Below are positions 4,091 to 48,041 of a DNA stretch of 64,000 nt, piece by piece. The position numbers and the translations under genes are program-made. The DNA is from Myxococcota bacterium (GTDB lineage: Bacteria > Myxococcota_A > UBA9160 > UBA6930), in NCBI GenBank assembly GCA_965223415.1, contig OZ245002.1:4296757-4360756 (forward strand), given 5' to 3'. The notes beneath the pieces are model-generated. The model searched no databases. It was not told where the DNA came from and was given only the letters and a program-made list of their open reading frames with translations. Position 1 is the first letter of the stretch. The number at the start of each line of letters is the position of its first letter.

Positions 4091-5238
4091 TGGTGCTTCC
4101 CCGGGGCGAGCGCCCCCACGCGCGTGTTCGCAGAAAGATCGGAGTCCTGGTTGTCGACGACTCGGTCGTCGTCCGGCGGATCCTTCGCAACGCCATCGAA
4201 TCCGATCCCGAGTTCGAAGTGGTCGGGACCGCGGCCAACGGCCGGGTCGCCGTCGCCCTCGTCCAGAGCCTCCGTCCGGACGCCATCACCCTCGACGTGG
4301 AGATGCCGGTGATGGGCGGCATCGAAACGTTGAAGGAGCTGCGCAGGCGGAGGCTCTCACTTCCGGTCGTGATGTTCTCGACGCTCACAGAGGCGGGCGC
4401 TCGAACGACCATCGAGGCGCTCTCGCTGGGTGCCAGCGATTATGCTCCCAAGCCCTCCCAGACGGACCCGGAAGCCTCCGCCGAGGAAGTGCGAAGGACA
4501 CTTCTGCCCAAGCTGAAGGCCCTCTGTCGGCAAGTGCCCCCGCCCTGTCGGCGGCGGGCGCCCGCGCCCTCGTCGCCGCCTCCCAGCGATCGCGGTCGTT
4601 CGCCCATCGCGAGGTCGCCCGCCCTGGAGCTGGTCGCGGTGGGGGCCTCGACGGGCGGGCCCAACGCGCTCGCTCACCTGCTGCCGGCACTACCCGACCG
4701 CTTCCCCGTCCCGGTCGTAGTCGTGCAGCACATGCCTCCGGTGTTCACCCGTCTCCTCGCGGAGCGCCTGGACAGCAGGACCGCGCTCCGCGTCGTGGAG
4801 GGCTCCGCGGGAGCGCTCCTCGAGCCGCGTACGGTGTACGTGGCACCCGGCGGCTTCCACATGACCGTCGCGCGCAAGGGGCCGCGACTCGCACTGGCTC
4901 TCGACCGGAAGCCCCCCGAACATGGCTGTCGGCCCGCGGCCGATCCCCTGTTCCGATCCGCTTCAGCGACGCTAGGCGCCGGCGCGCTCGGCGTGGTGCT
5001 CACCGGCATGGGGCGCGACGGCTGCGACGGAGCGAGGGCGCTGGTGGAGGCCGGCGCGAAGGTCGTCGCGCAGGACGCAGAGAGCTCCGTCGTGTGGGGG
5101 ATGGCCGGGAGTGTCGTCGAGGGAGGGCTGGCGGAAGCGGTCCTGCCGCTGTCCGAGCTGGCCGGCGAGATCGTCCGTCGCGTGGAGGCCGGCCGGCCCC
5201 AGCACCCTCGGGTGCGCCCGGAGGCAAAGGCGGGATGA
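4090..5238 (+). CDS. cheB: Chemotaxis response regulator protein-glutamate methylesterase CheB
   Basis: N-terminal receiver (VLVVDDS...DAITLDVEMPVMGG) plus methylesterase domain (GASTGGP, VVVQHMP, TGMGRDG). The ATG overlaps the cheW stop (TGATG). Confidence 0.92.
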   Translation: MVLPRGERPHARVRRKIGVLVVDDSVVVRRILRNAIESDPEFEVVGTAANGRVAVALVQSLRPDAITLDVEMPVMGGIETLKELRRRRLSLPVVMFSTLTEAGARTTIEALSLGASDYAPKPSQTDPEASAEEVRRTLLPKLKALCRQVPPPCRRRAPAPSSPPPSDRGRSPIARSPALELVAVGASTGGPNALAHLLPALPDRFPVPVVVVQHMPPVFTRLLAERLDSRTALRVVEGSAGALLEPRTVYVAPGGFHMTVARKGPRLALALDRKPPEHGCRPAADPLFRSASATLGAGALGVVLTGMGRDGCDGARALVEAGAKVVAQDAESSVVWGMAGSVVEGGLAEAVLPLSELAGEIVRRVEAGRPQHPRVRPEAKAG

Positions 5239-42190: not shown

Positions 42191-43333
42191 ATGCGACGAG
42201 AGATCTTCAGCGAGGAGCACGACCTCTTCCGCGAGCAGTTCCGGCGCTTCGTCCAGGAAGAAGTGGAGCCCCACGTCCAGGCGTGGAACGAGGCCGGCAT
42301 CACCCCGCGCCGGATCTGGAAGCGGATGGGCGAAGAGGGCTATCTGGGCGCGAACCAGCCCGAGGCCTACGGCGGCGCCGGCGGCGATTTCCTGTTCGAC
42401 GCGGTCATCATGGAGGAGCTGGCCTACGCCCGCGCCCACGCACTCCAGGCTTCCCTGCACACGGACATCTGCGTTCCCTACCTCACGACCTACGCCACCG
42501 AGGAGCAGAAGCAGCGTTGGCTGGTGCCGGCCATCGCCGGCGACTGCCTCGTCGCCATCGCCATGACCGAGCCCGGCACGGGCTCCGACCTCGCCGCCGT
42601 GCAGACGAAGGCGATCCGCGAAGGCGACGAGTACGTGGTGAACGGCGCCAAGACCTTCATCTCGAACGGACAGAACTGCGACCTGGTGATCGTCGTGGCC
42701 AAGACCGATCCGGAGAAGCGGCACGACGGGATCAGCCTGCTGCTCGTCGAGGCCGATACAGAGGGCTTCGAGCGCGGGCGCAATCTGGCCAAGATCGGCC
42801 TCAAGGGCCAGGACACGAGCGAGCTCTTCTTCCGGGAATGCAGGGTGCCCGCGGAGAACCTGCTGGGCCAGGAGGGGCAGGGCTTCAAGATGTTGATGGA
42901 GAAGCTGCAGCAGGAGCGCCTGTGCATCGGCGTCGGCTCCGTGGCCAGCGCGCGCCGCTCCCTCGACGACACCCTGGCCTACGTGAAGGAGCGCCAGGCC
43001 TTCGGCCAGCCCATTGGCCGCTTCCAGAACACGCAGTTCAAGCTGGCAGAGCTGGTGACGGAGATGGAGATCGGCCAGGCCTTCGTCGACCGGCTGCTCC
43101 AGGCCCACGTGCGCGGTGACGAGATCGTCTCCGAGGTGAGCATGGCCAAGTGGTGGTGCAGCGATCTCCAGAAGAAGGTCGCCGCCGAGTGCCTCCAGCT
43201 CCACGGCGGCTACGGCTTCATGGAGGAGTACCCGATCTCCAGCGACTACCAGGACGCCGCCGTCCAGAGCATCTACGCCGGAAGCAACGAGATCATGAAG
43301 GTGATCATCGCCCGACGGTTGGGGCTGGGCTGA
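42191..43333 (+). CDS. Acyl-CoA dehydrogenase
   Basis: 380 aa. AMTEPGTGSDLAAV, NGAKTFISNG, and the C-terminal catalytic region IYAGSNEIMKVIIAR. Confidence 0.9.
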   Translation: MRREIFSEEHDLFREQFRRFVQEEVEPHVQAWNEAGITPRRIWKRMGEEGYLGANQPEAYGGAGGDFLFDAVIMEELAYARAHALQASLHTDICVPYLTTYATEEQKQRWLVPAIAGDCLVAIAMTEPGTGSDLAAVQTKAIREGDEYVVNGAKTFISNGQNCDLVIVVAKTDPEKRHDGISLLLVEADTEGFERGRNLAKIGLKGQDTSELFFRECRVPAENLLGQEGQGFKMLMEKLQQERLCIGVGSVASARRSLDDTLAYVKERQAFGQPIGRFQNTQFKLAELVTEMEIGQAFVDRLLQAHVRGDEIVSEVSMAKWWCSDLQKKVAAECLQLHGGYGFMEEYPISSDYQDAAVQSIYAGSNEIMKVIIARRLGLG

Positions 43334-43617
43334 GGTCACCCATCTGGCGCTGGCCCTGGTCCGGCATGGCCGGCCGTCCGGGCGGCCCCGCTAGCCCTCG
43401 CGGGTCCTCCACTCCTGCACGCCCCCGCCGCGGCGACCGCGTCTCCGTTGCGTCCAGGGTGGCTGGGCTGAGGCGCGGCAGCGGCCTGTTCTCCCACGCG
43501 GGGTCCCTGCGGGGCTCGCAATCCGCTCGCAATGCGCAGCGGATGTGACGTTTCGCGGCCGGCCGTCATTGGTCTCTCCGGAGGGCATGGAACCCACGCT
43601 CTCGGGAGGAACCGAAG

Positions 43618-45075
43618 ATGGACTGGACGAACCTCTTGAACTCGATCCAGGAGGCGCTCGGTGCGACGGTGCCCGGCATCGCCGGCGCGCTCCTGATCGC
43701 GGTCGTCGGCTGGATCGCGGCGCTCGTCCTGCGCGCGATCGTGCGCCGCGGCCTGGGTGCGGCCGGGCTGAACCGGCGCCTGGCGGCGGGCACCGAGATC
43801 TCGGTCGACGCCGAGAACGGAGTGGCCAAGGGGGTGTACTGGGTGGTGCTGGCGATGGTCGGCGTGGCGTTCTTCAACGCCCTCGACCTGAACCAGGCCT
43901 CCGGCTCGCTCCAGCAGCTGGTGGACCAGGTGATGGTCTTCCTGCCCAAGCTCGTGGCCGGTGGCGTACTGCTGGGGGTGGCGATGCTGCTCGCGACCGG
44001 TGTGCGCATGCTCTCGACCCGGGCTCTGGCGGCGACCACGCTGGACGAGCGGCTCACCCAGGAAGCCGGCATCGCGCCGCCGAGCGCGAGCATCGGCAAC
44101 GTCCTCTACGGGCTGGTGTTGTTGCTCTTCCTTCCGGCGATCCTCGGCGTCCTCGAGCTCGGCGGGCTGCTCGCGCCCGTGCAGACCATGGTGGACGAGA
44201 TCCTGGGCCACCTGCCCAACGTGTTCGGGGCCGGCGTGCTGGGCGTCGCTGGCTGGTTCGTCGCGCGGCTGCTCCGCGACCTGGTGCAGAACCTGCTTTC
44301 GGCCACCGGCGCCGACCGGCTCGGCGAGCGCGCGGGCCTCCAGGGCAACACCACGCTCTCGGGCCTCGCCGGCCTCCTGGTCTACATCTTCGTGCTGGTG
44401 CCCGCCCTCATCGCCGCTCTCAACGTCCTGGCGATCGACGCGATCTCCGCGCCGGCGACGGAGATGCTCGGCCAGTTCATGGCGGCCATTCCGAACCTGT
44501 TCGCGGCGGGCATCATCCTCGCGGTGGCCTGGATCGTGTCGAACTTCGTGGCGGGGCTCCTCGAGTCGCTCCTCGGCGGGATGGGCTTCGATCGACTGCC
44601 GGAAACCCTGGGAGTCGCCAGCGTGATGCCCGCCGGCGCGACCCTCTCCAGTGTTGCCAGCCGCGTGCTGGTGTTCTTCGTGATGCTCTTCGCGCTCGTG
44701 GAGGCAGCCGCCCGTCTCGGCTTCGAGCAGATGTCCGGACTGGTCGGCATGCTCATTGCCTTCGGCGGCGACGTGCTGCTCGGGATCACGATCATCGCGG
44801 TCGGAGTGTGGATCTCGAACCTGGCTTCGGACGCGGTGGCGCGCGTTCGCGGAGGTGGTGCCGGGGGCGTCGCGGGCATCGTTCGCTTCGGCATCCTCGG
44901 CATCGTGGTGGCGATGGGCCTGCGCGCCATGGGGCTCGCAGACTCGATCGTGAACATGGCCTTCGGCCTCACCCTCGGCGCCGTGGCCGTGGCGGTCGCG
45001 CTCTCCTTCGGCCTCGGTGGCCGAGAGGCGGCGGGCCGGCAGATGGAACACTGGCTGGGTCAGCTTCGGAGCTAG
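43618..45075 (+). CDS. Polytopic membrane protein built of 'conserved TM helix' repeats (mechanosensitive-channel-related)
   Basis: 485 aa. Recurring modules of the form LP(K/N)(L/V)..A..(L/I)L..(A/G)W.(V/A)A..(L/V), such as FLPKLVAGGVLLGVAML, HLPNVFGAGVLGVAGWFVARLL and AIPNLFAAGIILAVAWIVSNFV. Confidence 0.7.
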   Translation: MDWTNLLNSIQEALGATVPGIAGALLIAVVGWIAALVLRAIVRRGLGAAGLNRRLAAGTEISVDAENGVAKGVYWVVLAMVGVAFFNALDLNQASGSLQQLVDQVMVFLPKLVAGGVLLGVAMLLATGVRMLSTRALAATTLDERLTQEAGIAPPSASIGNVLYGLVLLLFLPAILGVLELGGLLAPVQTMVDEILGHLPNVFGAGVLGVAGWFVARLLRDLVQNLLSATGADRLGERAGLQGNTTLSGLAGLLVYIFVLVPALIAALNVLAIDAISAPATEMLGQFMAAIPNLFAAGIILAVAWIVSNFVAGLLESLLGGMGFDRLPETLGVASVMPAGATLSSVASRVLVFFVMLFALVEAAARLGFEQMSGLVGMLIAFGGDVLLGITIIAVGVWISNLASDAVARVRGGGAGGVAGIVRFGILGIVVAMGLRAMGLADSIVNMAFGLTLGAVAVAVALSFGLGGREAAGRQMEHWLGQLRS

Positions 45076-45142
45076 TCCGGAGGAGGGGGCGGGGGGACCC
45101 GCCCCCTCCTCGACCGGTGGCCGTCGGGACTACTCTCAGCCA

Positions 45143-45751
45143 GTGGAGAGGGGGAAGGCTGGCGGCGCTCCCGGCGCCGATTCGCCGGGCCGAGAGGCGC
45201 TGGACGACCACACGCTCGTCCAGCGAGCTCGGCTCGAGCTGCCCCGCCGGACGATCGCCTACCAAAGGCTCGTCGAACGTCACGCAGACGGGGTCTATCG
45301 GCGGGCCCATCGGCTGCTCGGCTCGCGGGAGGACGCGGAGGACGTGGTCCAGGACGTGATGCTCAGCGTGCTTCGGGGGTTGCCCGGGCTTCGGCCCGAG
45401 CAGCCCTTCTCGCACTGGCTCAGTCGGGTGACGACGAATGCCTGCCTGCTCACGCTGCGGCGGCGCGGCCAACGGGCGCGGCGGCGCGACGCCTTCGGCC
45501 GCGAGCCGCGGAACGGTGCGACCCATCCGCCCGGCGACCCCATGCTGCGCGAAGCGTTGGCTCGCGCACTCGAGGCGTTCCCCGAGGAGACCCGCATCGC
45601 CGTGGTGGGCCGCCTGCTCGAGGAGCGGAGCTACGTCGAGCTCGCACGGGAGCTCGGGCTCAGCGAGTCGGCCCTCAAGATGAGGGTCTCGCGGGCCTGC
45701 AGCGCGCTGCGAGAGCGTTTGGCACCGGAGGGCGGGGTCGATGGCGGATGA
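45143..45751 (+). CDS. ECF-type RNA polymerase sigma-70 family factor
   Basis: Region 2 (EDAEDVVQDVMLSVLRGL...FSHWLSRVTTNACL) and region 4 HTH (SYVELARELGLSESALKMRVSRA). The start is uncertain. GTG 45143 is the first candidate downstream of the preceding gene. Confidence 0.8.
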   Translation: MERGKAGGAPGADSPGREALDDHTLVQRARLELPRRTIAYQRLVERHADGVYRRAHRLLGSREDAEDVVQDVMLSVLRGLPGLRPEQPFSHWLSRVTTNACLLTLRRRGQRARRRDAFGREPRNGATHPPGDPMLREALARALEAFPEETRIAVVGRLLEERSYVELARELGLSESALKMRVSRACSALRERLAPEGGVDGG

Positions 45752-46031
45752 ATCGCGCGCTGGACGGCGCGACGTGCGCGACGACGAGGGGGCTCTGCGC
45801 GACCTGTTCGCGGACCCCCTCTCGTTGGGGGAGCCCCCGCCGCCGCCCGAGCGGGATCTCGTGGAGCAGGCCATGGATCAGGCCCGCGCGGAGATCCACG
45901 CCCGGGATTGGATCGACCTCACGACCCAGGTGCTCGTGCTGCGGTTCTTCGTGCCCATGCTCGAGCTGATCATGGGGAATCTGCTGCCCGCACACTCCCG
46001 GGAGGGGAACGATGAACGAGACGATGGCTGA
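45741..46031 (+). CDS. Small hypothetical protein, candidate anti-sigma factor
   Basis: ATG preceded by GGAGGG. Overlaps the sigma gene stop by 11 nt and the next gene by 20 nt. One hydrophobic stretch (LTTQVLVLRFFVPMLELIMGNLL). No HxxxCxxC zinc motif. Confidence 0.5.
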   Translation: MADESRAGRRDVRDDEGALRDLFADPLSLGEPPPPPERDLVEQAMDQARAEIHARDWIDLTTQVLVLRFFVPMLELIMGNLLPAHSREGNDERDDG

Positions 46032-46845
46032 CCGCGCGTCGGCCTGGGCCGAGCCCCTGACCCAGGCCGCCGCCCAGCTCGGCACGATGGCCGCGAACCT
46101 GATTCCGGACCTGGTCGGGGCCATCCTGCTGCTCCTGGTCGGGTGGGGTGCCGCCCGCGGCCTCGGGTGGCTCGTCGCTCGTGCCCTGGAGCGTCTCGGC
46201 TTCGACCGGGCCGTCGAGCGCCTCGCCGGGGACGCCCTGGGTCGGGTGGGCTTCGCGGGCTCGTCCGCCGCCGTGATGGGGCGCGTCGTCTACTGGATCG
46301 TGCTCCTCGCCTTCCTGATGGGCGCGGCCCAGGTCCTCGGCCTGGACGCCTTGACCGGCACGATCGAACGCCTCTTCGCCTACCTGCCCAACGTGCTGTC
46401 CGCCGCGATCATCGTGGTGCTGGGCGTGAGCGTCGCCCGGCTGGTCGGCGACGTCGTGACCTCCGGCGCCGGAGCGGCGAACCTGAGCTACGCCCGGCAG
46501 CTCGGCACCGCGGCGCGGGGTGCCTTCGTGGTGATGGTCGTGGTGACCGTGCTCGAGCAGCTGGGTGTCGACACGCGCGTGCTCCAGACGGCGATCACCG
46601 CGGTGCTGGCCATGATCGCGGTCGGCCTCGGCCTGAGCTTCGCCTTCGGCTCCGGCGATGTGGTGCGGGGGATCCTCGCTGGCCACTATGTCCGGCAGTC
46701 CCTGGAGGAGGGCCAGGAGGTCAGCGTCCGCGGCCGCCGCGGCCGTGTCGAGCGAATCGGGCCCGTCGAGACCCTGTTCCGGGACGGTTCCGGGAGCTGG
46801 AGCATCCCCAACGCCCAGCTGATGGCCGAAGTGATCGAGCGCTAA
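46012..46845 (+). CDS. TM_helix-repeat membrane protein with an MscS-like C-terminal beta-domain
   Basis: ATG preceded by GGGAGGGG. Modules LIPDLVGAILLLLVGWGAARGL and YLPNVLSAAIIVVLGVSVARLV. C-terminus GQEVSVRGRRGRVERIGPVETLFRDGSGSWSIPNAQL resembles the MscS beta-domain. Confidence 0.7.
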   Translation: MNETMADRASAWAEPLTQAAAQLGTMAANLIPDLVGAILLLLVGWGAARGLGWLVARALERLGFDRAVERLAGDALGRVGFAGSSAAVMGRVVYWIVLLAFLMGAAQVLGLDALTGTIERLFAYLPNVLSAAIIVVLGVSVARLVGDVVTSGAGAANLSYARQLGTAARGAFVVMVVVTVLEQLGVDTRVLQTAITAVLAMIAVGLGLSFAFGSGDVVRGILAGHYVRQSLEEGQEVSVRGRRGRVERIGPVETLFRDGSGSWSIPNAQLMAEVIER

Positions 46846-46881
46846 CGCAACAGGGAGGTTCTGGCGGGCTGGCTCGACGAG

Positions 46882-47196
46882 GTGAGCAACGTTCCGGGCG
46901 TGCCCGGCGGACGCACCTCGCTCGCCGGCCAGGTCGAAGGTGCCCTCGCGGGCGGGACGATCCAGGACCTCGGCAACGGCACGGTCCGCTTCGCGATGAC
47001 CTTCGACGCATCCGGGCTCGGGCGCGATCCCGGCAGCTCGTCCTTCGACGTCAGCTACGGCCTCACCGGGCAGTTGGTCGCCCACGCGACGGTGCCGGAG
47101 CCCGCTGCGCGGCTGCTGCTCGTTGCCGGGATCCTGGGCCTGTCCGCTGGCGAACGCACCACCGGGGGCGCTCCCGAGCGCAGGCGTAGCGTCTAG
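46882..47196 (+). CDS. ORF ending in a PEP-CTERM-like sorting tail, with no recognisable signal peptide
   Basis: C-terminus VPEPAARLLLVAGILGLSAGERTTGGAPERRRSV (PEP motif, hydrophobic span, basic cluster). In frame with the upstream gene across a single TAA (46843-46845). Confidence 0.45.
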   Translation: MSNVPGVPGGRTSLAGQVEGALAGGTIQDLGNGTVRFAMTFDASGLGRDPGSSSFDVSYGLTGQLVAHATVPEPAARLLLVAGILGLSAGERTTGGAPERRRSV

Positions 47197-48041
47197 GCCA
47201 GGTCGGGGGAGCTCGGGTTCCGGGCCAAGCGGACGTCCTCGAGGCGCAGGTCGCAGGCGGTGCGCCAGGGGTCGCCCTCGGGTGCCAGCACGTAGAAGCG
47301 GTCGTCGCGGATGGCCTGGACCGTGCGCTCGGCGATGACCTTCGGGTCGGCGCCGGTCTTCGTCGCCTCGCGGATCGCCTGCTCGACGAGACGGGTCCCG
47401 GCCGGCATCGGCTCGTCGCCGCGCTTCAGGTGGGTGGGGCGATTGCGGTCGGCGTCCCCGATGCGGGTCGCGATCAGCTCCGGGCACACGACGCTCACGC
47501 CCACCTTCGCCTGCTGCATGCGCAGCTCGTGGTAGAGGCTCTCGGACAGGGCCAGGACGGCGTGCTTGCTCATCACGTAGGCGCCGGACATCGGGGTGGC
47601 GGTGACCGCCGCCATCGAAGCCGTGTTGACCACGTGGCCTTCGTCCTGCTCGAGGAAGATCGGCACGAAGCTGCGGATGCCGTGGATCACGCCCCAGGTG
47701 TTCACGCCGAGGACCCACTCGTAGTCGGAGAGCGGGGCCTCCCAGGAGAGTCCACCGGCGAACACCCCGGCGTTGTTGCACACCACGTGGGCCGCGCCGA
47801 AACGGTCTCGGGTCGCCTCGGCGAGAGCCTGCACCGAGTCCGCCCGCGCGACGTCCGTGACCCGCCCCTCGGCCTCGATACCGGCGCCCCGGAGCCGCGC
47901 CACGACCTCGTCCAAGGCCGCTCCGTCCACGTCGGCGACCATCACGCCCATTCCCTGGCCGCCGAGACGCTCTGCCATCGCGCGACCGATCCCGCTGGCG
48001 CCGCCCGTCACCACGGCCACCTTGCCCGAGAGCTCCTGCAT
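47193..48041 (-). CDS. SDR family oxidoreductase
   Basis: VAVVTGGASGIGRAMA, NNAGV, YVMSKHAV. ATG preceded by GAGAGGAGGGG. Confidence 0.88.
   Translation of the reverse strand: MQELSGKVAVVTGGASGIGRAMAERLGGQGMGVMVADVDGAALDEVVARLRGAGIEAEGRVTDVARADSVQALAEATRDRFGAAHVVCNNAGVFAGGLSWEAPLSDYEWVLGVNTWGVIHGIRSFVPIFLEQDEGHVVNTASMAAVTATPMSGAYVMSKHAVLALSESLYHELRMQQAKVGVSVVCPELIATRIGDADRNRPTHLKRGDEPMPAGTRLVEQAIREATKTGADPKVIAERTVQAIRDDRFYVLAPEGDPWRTACDLRLEDVRLARNPSSPDLA

Follow-up and report, generated by a model that had tools for sequence, protein, structure and literature searches.

In Pseudomonas aeruginosa, SigX, an ECF (extracytoplasmic function) sigma factor that belongs to group ECF102, is encoded with the MscS-like protein CmpX and with CfrX, a small putative anti-sigma factor, in what has been called a "mechanosensing complex" (PMC7826278, PMC8999054). 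A mechanosensitive channel is conserved in subgroups s1, s2, and s5 of ECF102 (PMC7826278, PMC8999054). In P. aeruginosa, cfrX (84 amino acids) and cmpX are transcribed together from a region that depends on SigX, and SigX reacts to hypo-osmolarity, to cold, and to stiffening of the membrane; the promoter consensus of SigX is described as "not precisely defined" and its control as "unknown" (PMC7641640; PMC10965496). Sensing of membrane or envelope stress is the leading hypothesis for the Pseudomonas system (PMC7641640, PMC8999054). Here we describe a block of four genes in a 64-kb stretch of contig OZ245002.1 from a Myxococcota bacterium; we refer to this whole stretch as the window. In order, the genes encode a 485-aa membrane protein, an ECF sigma factor, a 96-aa protein, and a 277-aa MscS-like protein. 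Judging from its architecture and from the homology of its channel-like protein, the block is probably a distant relative of the SigX-CfrX-CmpX system, a divergent variant with another gene order and without OprF. An earlier note on this DNA, written from the sequence alone, did not recognize the arrangement as a described one, but the same kind of architecture is known from P. aeruginosa as CfrX-CmpX-SigX (ECF102; PMC7826278, PMC8999054).

The likeness has several parts. In both loci, an ECF sigma factor lies beside a small protein without a recognized anti-sigma domain (84 aa in Pseudomonas, 96 aa in the window, and 82-86 aa in the window's relatives) and an MscS-like protein of about 275 aa. 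The small gene is directly upstream of the channel gene in both, and in the window, the two are coupled by an overlap. Among the named NCBIfam models, the best match to the window's sigma factor is NF007222 ("SigX"), at 88.3 bits against a cut-off of 194. Divalent-cation transporters also recur nearby: CorA-like cmaX in Pseudomonas, and MgtE in one relative of the block (the contig that encodes protein P0126) and beside distant relatives of the channel.

The differences are also clear. The sigma gene comes first in the window's triplet but last in Pseudomonas. The OprF porin downstream and cmaX upstream are features of subgroup s1, and neither is found at the window's block: no OprF/OmpA-type gene and no CorA-like cmaX lies beside it in the window. 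CfrX is described as a soluble protein, but the small protein of the window has a hydrophobic helix. Compared with Pseudomonas, the window has two extras upstream, a gene with four PF05552 stretches and an RNA hairpin, and a further paralogue of the small protein, a soluble one, occurs in the window's relatives. The Pseudomonas cfrX-cmpX-sigX locus itself was not met in scans of viral contigs (with the family alignment or with P0393, a Pseudomonas protein described below) or in a tblastn search of plasmids.

Two other systems bear comparison. In the CnrH-CnrY-CnrX system, a single-pass protein of about 95 aa holds the ECF sigma factor with a short cytoplasmic helix, and a co-encoded membrane sensor sets its state. 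The window's proteins may work in a similar way, but there is no sequence similarity: a profile of the small-protein family matched no PDB chain, those of CnrY complexes included. Also, CnrX is a periplasmic metal sensor, whereas the would-be sensor in the window is an MscS-like multi-pass protein. In Bacillus subtilis SigY-YxlC-YxlD (ECF31), the sigma gene is followed by at least two small membrane proteins that are jointly needed for control of the sigma factor (PMC7826278); these proteins are unrelated to the window's, and the system has no channel-like component.

We compared six independent loci whose channel proteins are 46-71% identical: the window, L082, the P0126 contig, L088, L089, and L090. 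The order sigma factor, small protein, channel is kept in all six, and so is the overlap of the small gene with the channel gene, while the flanks are unrelated. All four genes stand in the same order in the close relatives, which are about 70% identical: contig L082 from a metagenome, and L084, L085, and L087 from Logan. The distant relatives (the P0126 contig, L088, L089, and L090/L091, with channels at 46-53% identity) have an ECF sigma factor of 190-196 aa, an open reading frame (ORF) of 82-142 aa without a Pfam match, and the channel, with an overlap of 4-8 nt between the latter two genes. The sigma and small genes are separated by 2 nt in L088 and by 14 nt in the P0126 contig. A metagenome scan with the 277-aa protein yielded just 2 loci. 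The nearest named relatives of this lineage are metagenome-assembled genomes of Myxococcota and "Deltaproteobacteria."

The triplet arrangement is beyond chance, and the conserved core is the sigma factor, the small protein, and the channel, which are translationally coupled. That the triplet and its overlaps are kept despite unrelated flanks supports the view that these three form a functional unit. That the sigma factor, the small protein, and the MscS-like protein belong together was proposed in the earlier note, which named the absence of conserved linkage to TM_helix proteins as what would speak against it; we found the linkage in 6 of 6 loci.

The gene upstream of the sigma gene varies. 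The window and its close relatives have the 485-aa gene there, and L088 and L090 have an ORF of 74-78 aa. The P0126 contig has a 136-aa ORF, which is itself preceded by MgtE, two genes upstream of the sigma gene. In L089, mscL (PF01741), which encodes a large-conductance mechanosensitive channel, occupies the slot of the 485-aa gene, 20 nt upstream of the module's sigma gene, which begins at 5185. Since L088, L089, L090, and the P0126 contig all lack the 485-aa gene, it lies outside the conserved core. The "sandwich" of the sigma factor between two TM_helix proteins, which the earlier note emphasized, is therefore not a conserved feature: the 485-aa gene adjoins the triplet only in close relatives, and its place is taken elsewhere by mscL, a small-protein paralogue, or other genes.

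The genes themselves are real. The window is about 71% G+C, and in all four frames the G+C content is 0.85-0.93 at third codon positions (GC3) and 0.41-0.53 at second positions (GC2), which is the coding signature of the host genome; GC3 of the 96-aa frame is 0.85-0.90. After checking start and stop codons, we found that the 96-aa gene overlaps the sigma gene by exactly 11 nt (45741-45751) and the 277-aa gene by exactly 20 nt (46012-46031). Together with the domain matches described below, these results bear out the four co-oriented genes, their sizes, and their overlaps as first read from the sequence. The coordinates of these and other features are in Table 1.

Table 1. Features of the block, its surroundings, and the related loci discussed in the text (window coordinates unless a locus is named)
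Feature	Location	Strand	Remark
Acyl-CoA dehydrogenase gene	42191-43333		upstream neighbour; judged from translation
Candidate ECF-type promoter, TGTGACG-N16-CATT, TGTGACGtttcgcggccggccgTCATT	43544-43570	+	3' end 48 nt short of the 485-aa gene's ATG
485-aa gene	43618-45075	+	ORF
GC-rich stem-loop	45077-45121	+	immediately follows the 485-aa gene's stop codon
ECF sigma gene	45143-45751	+	202 aa from GTG 45143 (start as in database copy P0001); longest ORF from 45017
96-aa gene	45741-46031	+
277-aa gene	46012-46845	+
104-aa ORF	46882-47196	+	just 3' of the block; start codon uncertain
SDR-type gene		opposite strand	downstream of the block; judged from translation
mscL (PF01741)	L089:4751-5164
HerA-like ATPase gene (825 aa)	L089:6842-9319
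Exact promoter motif	L089:9330-9356	+
DUF4332 gene and soluble small paralogue	L089:9471-10221
Relaxed motif GTGACG-N14-AGCATT	L089:10236-10261
PG_binding_1 protein gene	L089:10359-11339
Solitary sigma gene (P0005)	L001:8001-8633		neighbours oppositely oriented
MgtE-linked CmpX-like loci	L092-L095:6001-9044; L096:4112-5843; L097:1006-2737; P0126 contig genes 293-1648
zf-HC2 gene beside CmpX-like channel	L098:5834-6424 (also L099:1066-1272)

The 277-aa protein has two stretches of PF05552 (E = 6.3e-18), but with the Pfam hidden Markov model (HMM) for the MscS domain, PF00924, it had no match at E <= 0.1. The MscS-like beta-domain that the earlier note had proposed at its C terminus was nevertheless recovered by homology and by fold. 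First, phmmer aligned residues 123-275 to 9sdb, a 171-aa heptameric "small-conductance mechanosensitive channel" (E = 1.2e-7). Second, an AlphaFold2 model built with 43 family members (mean predicted local distance difference test [pLDDT] of 91) has six helices followed by a beta-domain at residues 236-266, and Foldseek matched this model with probability 1.00 to MscS structures over about 160 residues; the matches include 2vv5, 6vyk, and 4hw9 and cover MscS proteins of E. coli, H. pylori, and T. tengcongensis. So, of the two domains that the note proposed to scan for, PF05552 was found (four stretches in the 485-aa protein and two here) and the MscS domain was missed by its Pfam model. On the strength of the model and the alignment, the 277-aa protein is a CmpX-type truncated MscS-like protein, with a pore-type helix and an Sm-like beta-domain.

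Both of these elements are shared with the MscS family (E. coli MscS and YnaI, and 9sdb), and the prediction of five helices with the C terminus inside resembles YnaI, which has five transmembrane helices. The outer helices of the 277-aa protein are PF05552 repeats. MscS has an alpha/beta vestibule domain (PF21082), but the 277-aa protein has no such C-terminal domain and ends 11 residues past the last beta strand. This is not without precedent: PDB entries 9sdb, 9sdg, 9seh, and 9sed are 171-aa channels, with seven chains each, that end after the beta-domain, which shows that there are channels of the MscS type lacking the C-terminal alpha/beta domain.

The family to which the 277-aa protein belongs is large: its profile matched 12,083 representative clusters (clustered at 50% identity) at E <= 0.001. 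A 274-aa protein from Pseudomonas sp. (P0393, HLV17043.1) has two PF05552 stretches and PF00924, and it is 35% identical to the 277-aa protein over 272 aa (E = 1e-29). From its genus, length, and architecture, P0393 is probably the CmpX orthologue.

Some members of the family have other neighbours. CmpX-like proteins of 279-280 aa that are 31-39% identical to the 277-aa protein are not linked to sigma factors; their genes adjoin or overlap genes for MgtE_N+CBS proteins and MgtE (Table 1). This suggests that magnesium transport is recurrently linked to CmpX-like channels. In L098, a zf-HC2 gene and a CmpX-like channel gene overlap by 4 nt at the stop codon of the latter. The classical zf-HC2 anti-sigma motif (HLKICKQC; PF13490, 24.9 bits) is fused to a membrane region like that of a Na_sulph_symp transporter, and the contig is too short to show whether a sigma gene follows. 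Taken together, CmpX-like clades that are wired to a sigma factor and a small protein, to MgtE_N/CBS proteins, or to a zf-HC2 fusion suggest that the channel serves as a signalling platform.

The 96-aa protein is acidic, with a net charge of -11, and all copies of its family are strongly acidic (-9 to -21). It has a disordered N terminus followed by a long helix, whose first half (residues ~38-56) is amphipathic and whose second half (~57-81) is hydrophobic. An AlphaFold2 model from the single sequence (pLDDT 70) has helices at residues 12-22 and 38-81. The most hydrophobic stretch, at residues 64-82, has a Kyte-Doolittle mean over 19 residues of 1.88, and membrane-type copies from the module loci ("B" copies) range from 1.85 to 2.32. 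Within the hydrophobic helix, an invariant Arg and an Asp/Glu are seven residues apart, on one face of the helix, with an invariant Pro between them; in the window's protein, these residues are R68, P72, and E75. Across 5 loci, the conserved core is ...P(D/E)R..(R/E)......(E/L)(I/T)..(R/K)D(L/W)ID(L/F)(T/A)T.V..(L/M)RF..P..(D/E)L. These results agree with the first description of the protein as having one hydrophobic helix and no zinc-binding anti-sigma motif: it contains no Cys and hence no HxxxCxxC.

A word-index homology search with the 96-aa protein returned only the protein itself. Using tblastn and HMM searches of loci that we had fetched via neighbouring genes, we found homologues that are 63-65% identical in L082, L084, and L085, and clear relatives in L088, L089, and L090. 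Neither the 96-aa protein nor 7 of its homologues had any match in Pfam or NCBIfam at E <= 10, and the modeled fold has two helices and is not a four-helix bundle. By sequence comparison, then, the small proteins are a family that is absent from Pfam and NCBIfam and that fits no classical anti-sigma class, be it zf-HC2/RsrA, RskA, FecR, CnrY, or NepR. The family has two forms. Besides the membrane-type copies, there are soluble paralogues ("A"): in L088 and L090 they are the ORFs that precede the sigma gene, and in L089 the paralogue is a 113-aa ORF. These keep the amphipathic helix and lack the hydrophobic one (Kyte-Doolittle mean of 0.5-1.35). The window holds the membrane-type copy only. 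Given its position, which corresponds to that of CfrX, the 96-aa protein is a putative anti-sigma factor or adaptor.

The window's sigma factor has Sigma70_r2 and Sigma70_r4_2 (PF04542 and PF08281) as its only domains, and it scores 78.4 bits against the ECF model TIGR02937, for which the cut-off is 42.9. These matches place it in the ECF (group 4) branch of the sigma-70 family, as had been thought. It is 69% identical to the sigma factor of L087 and 45% identical to the module sigma factors of L088, L089, and L090. Overall, we distinguish three subclades at 45-51% identity to the window's sigma factor: the window's own, which is found with the module; that of L088-L090, also with the module; and that of P0005 in L001, which is solitary. 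The L001 sigma factor, whose subclade includes P0007-P0012, is 49% identical to the window's, and no promoter motif of the kind described next was found at its locus. A scan of genomes with the sigma factor also turned up 80 ECF loci in Gemmatimonadota (33-43% identical), none of which had a PF05552 neighbour. We set these aside because they belong to a different ECF group and are uninformative about the module.

Upstream of the 485-aa gene, we noticed a candidate ECF-type promoter, TGTGACG-N16-CATT, which is the sole match in the window even if one mismatch is allowed. Exact copies lie between genes on the + strand of L088 (at 2272), L090 (at 4608), and L089 (at 9330). The motif is present in all four module loci for which we have upstream sequence, whereas a set of 95 further loci (895 kb, with 0.17 matches expected) has no copy. 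We first noticed it in the window, L088, and L090, so the copy in L089 is an independent confirmation (about 0.002 matches were expected). The spacing of 16 nt between GAC and the downstream block seems to fit the geometry of ECF promoters, and we found no sigma-70-type promoter in 43300-47300. In L088 and L090, the motif precedes the first gene of the module; in L089, it precedes a DUF4332 gene, which is followed by the soluble small paralogue. This distribution suggests that the motif is the sigma factor's own promoter, with the 485-aa gene as the first gene that it would drive.

More broadly, the region downstream of the module in L089 contains, in order, a gene for an 825-aa HerA-like ATPase, the exact motif, the DUF4332 gene with the soluble paralogue, and a relaxed form of the motif that precedes a gene for a PG_binding_1 protein. 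The genes in L089 that are preceded by the motif may be further members of the regulon.

Three other candidate signals were rejected. A GGAAC-type promoter that overlaps the ribosome-binding site of the 485-aa gene is just the Shine-Dalgarno region. A TGACG/CGTCA inverted repeat within the window's motif, considered as an operator, is absent from L088, L089, and L090. In L084 and L085, the relaxed motif also matches inside the channel gene, at its 3' end, where it is a coding coincidence (TGG AGC ATT).

The 485-aa protein is indeed made of repeated TM_helix modules, with PF05552 matching in four stretches (E = 3.5e-46), and it scores 300 bits against the NCBIfam model NF033912 ("msc"; cut-off 100). 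It has neither a beta-domain nor a pore helix, and it has no relative by sequence with a solved structure. The transcript that depends on the sigma factor probably begins with its gene. Its C-terminal part (window 44662-45075) is 92-96% identical to L087:4-414 and L082:2-139, whereas the sigma factor, the small protein, and the 277-aa protein of the same contigs (L082 and L087) are only 63-71% identical to the window's. Thus, the constraint on the 485-aa protein is very different.

Between the 485-aa gene and the sigma gene lies a GC-rich stem-loop with a perfect stem of 13 bp (45081-45093 paired with 45098-45110) and a minimum free energy of -41.9 kcal/mol (z = -3.8). Hairpins of different sequence are found at the same position in L087 (-36.3 kcal/mol) and L082 (-36.0 kcal/mol). 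The window's stem-loop is not followed by a run of T. It may act as a terminator, an attenuator, or an element that stabilizes the RNA.

We consider it somewhat more likely than not that the block works as a signalling operon like SigX/CfrX/CmpX, with an autoregulated ECF sigma factor, a 96-aa inhibitor, and a channel that senses the state of the membrane. If so, the sigma factor would drive the 485-aa gene from the motif and, by reading through the hairpin, its own three-gene module, which would give positive feedback. The 96-aa protein would be the inhibitor: its cytoplasmic amphipathic helix would hold the sigma factor, and its hydrophobic helix, with Arg and Glu on one face, would anchor it against the outer helices of a heptamer of the 277-aa protein. 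Membrane tension, fluidity, or lipid packing would shift the conformation of the 277-aa protein, and this shift would free the small protein or expose it to proteolysis, so that the sigma factor is released. In relatives that have the soluble paralogue, which shares the amphipathic helix and has no hydrophobic helix, the paralogue may compete for the same partner. The zf-HC2 gene beside a CmpX-like channel in L098 favors the proposal, as it links such a channel independently to an anti-sigma domain.

Several observations weigh against this proposal. At the level of transcription, the hairpin that precedes the sigma gene would oppose simple autoregulation, and there is no exact copy of the motif upstream of the mscL-sigma unit in L089. 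As for the inhibitor, CfrX is itself only a putative anti-sigma factor, and it is described as soluble (PMC8999054); the window's 96-aa protein is likened to it by position and size. The small proteins showed no similarity to anti-sigma domains of class I, II, or III, and a search of the PDB with the small-protein profile, with the CnrY complexes included, gave nothing below E = 1.4. As for the sigma factor, its score is well short of the SigX equivalog cut-off, and for the sigma factors of L088-L090, PRK11922 outscores NF007222, which comes second or third. Finally, in the solitary subclade, which is 48-49% identical to the window's sigma factor, no small or channel gene lies within 8 kb on either side of the L001 sigma gene.

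Some of these points would be expected if the locus were an output and not a sensor. The channel genes and the small protein would then be effectors in the sigma factor's regulon that serve envelope or osmotic homeostasis, the 96-aa protein would be a subunit of the channel, and the sigma factor would be controlled from elsewhere. In Pseudomonas, cfrX and cmpX belong to the SigX regulon, and overexpression of cmpX left the expression of sigX and cfrX and of SigX targets unchanged (PMC10965496). An output role would also account for the small protein's lack of an anti-sigma signature and for the related subclade of sigma factors without the pair. The small gene always overlaps the channel gene but not always the sigma gene, as the gaps in L088 and the P0126 contig illustrate, and the pairing of lower-identity CmpX-like proteins with MgtE_N/CBS implies that the channel serves other cytoplasmic partners. 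On the other hand, the sigma gene stays beside the pair in all six loci despite unrelated flanks, which is the usual signature of a sigma factor and its cognate regulator, and ECF sigma factors without a regulator are exceptions. A soluble paralogue under the same motif is hard to explain if the small protein is a mere subunit of the channel, and the zf-HC2 anti-sigma domain beside a CmpX-like gene in L098 would not be expected either. We therefore view a pure output role as possible but rather unlikely. Were the channel genes nothing more than outputs of the sigma factor, the locus would be an ordinary envelope-stress regulon.

We think it improbable that the four genes form an undescribed unit in which the 485-aa and 277-aa TM_helix proteins jointly sense tension, as was first suggested. 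In favor of such a unit, the four genes share one orientation, the candidate promoter lies ahead of the 485-aa gene, the order is kept in L082 and L087, and mscL sits in the same upstream slot in L089. Yet the architecture is already described as ECF102 SigX-CfrX-CmpX (PMC7826278, PMC8999054), the 485-aa gene is missing from the four more distant module loci, and a strong, conserved hairpin separates it from the sigma gene. The 485-aa protein also evolves at a very different rate from the other three, and it lacks the pore helix and the beta-domain. So, of the sensing unit that the earlier note envisaged, the functional unit with conserved linkage stands, while its novelty and the four-gene sandwich do not. 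That the genes are chance neighbours with no functional connection, the 96-aa ORF being one of the many long spurious ORFs of a high-GC genome (there are dozens among the window's ORFs) and finding only itself by word index, is scarcely credible and is refuted by the conservation of the triplet in 6 of 6 loci, by the coding pattern of GC3 and GC2 in the 96-aa frame, and by same-position homologues of the 96-aa protein that are recognizable as far away as L088-L090.

Returning to the SigX/CfrX/CmpX-type operon, a more speculative and, to us, doubtful extension is that the two forms of the small protein, one anchored in the membrane and coupled to the channel and one soluble under the same motif, make up a partner switch together with the channel. 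The switch would turn tension or lipid packing into release of the sigma factor; it would be widespread in Myxococcota-like bacteria and ancestral to the logic of SigX in Pseudomonas. If true, this would be a minimal pathway from mechanotransduction to transcription that needs no OprF.

What is new here is the breadth of the module outside Pseudomonas, the family of small proteins and its two forms, the candidate promoter, and the alternative partners of CmpX-like proteins. The window's locus and its relatives offer a more compact version of the system: the three genes are translationally coupled, a porin partner is lacking, the candidate promoter is sharply defined, and the small protein has a two-part helix with invariant Arg, Pro, and Asp/Glu. 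Such a compact locus gives handles on membrane sensing of the SigX type, for which the route of the stimulus in P. aeruginosa is called unknown (PMC7641640, PMC8999054).

The block is flanked by genes of other kinds (Table 1), and no Rfam family was found in the window. Just 3' of the block, the 104-aa ORF had no match in Pfam or NCBIfam. Its GC3 is 0.88, and its C terminus, with VPEP, a hydrophobic stretch, and RRR, resembles a PEP-CTERM sorting signal.

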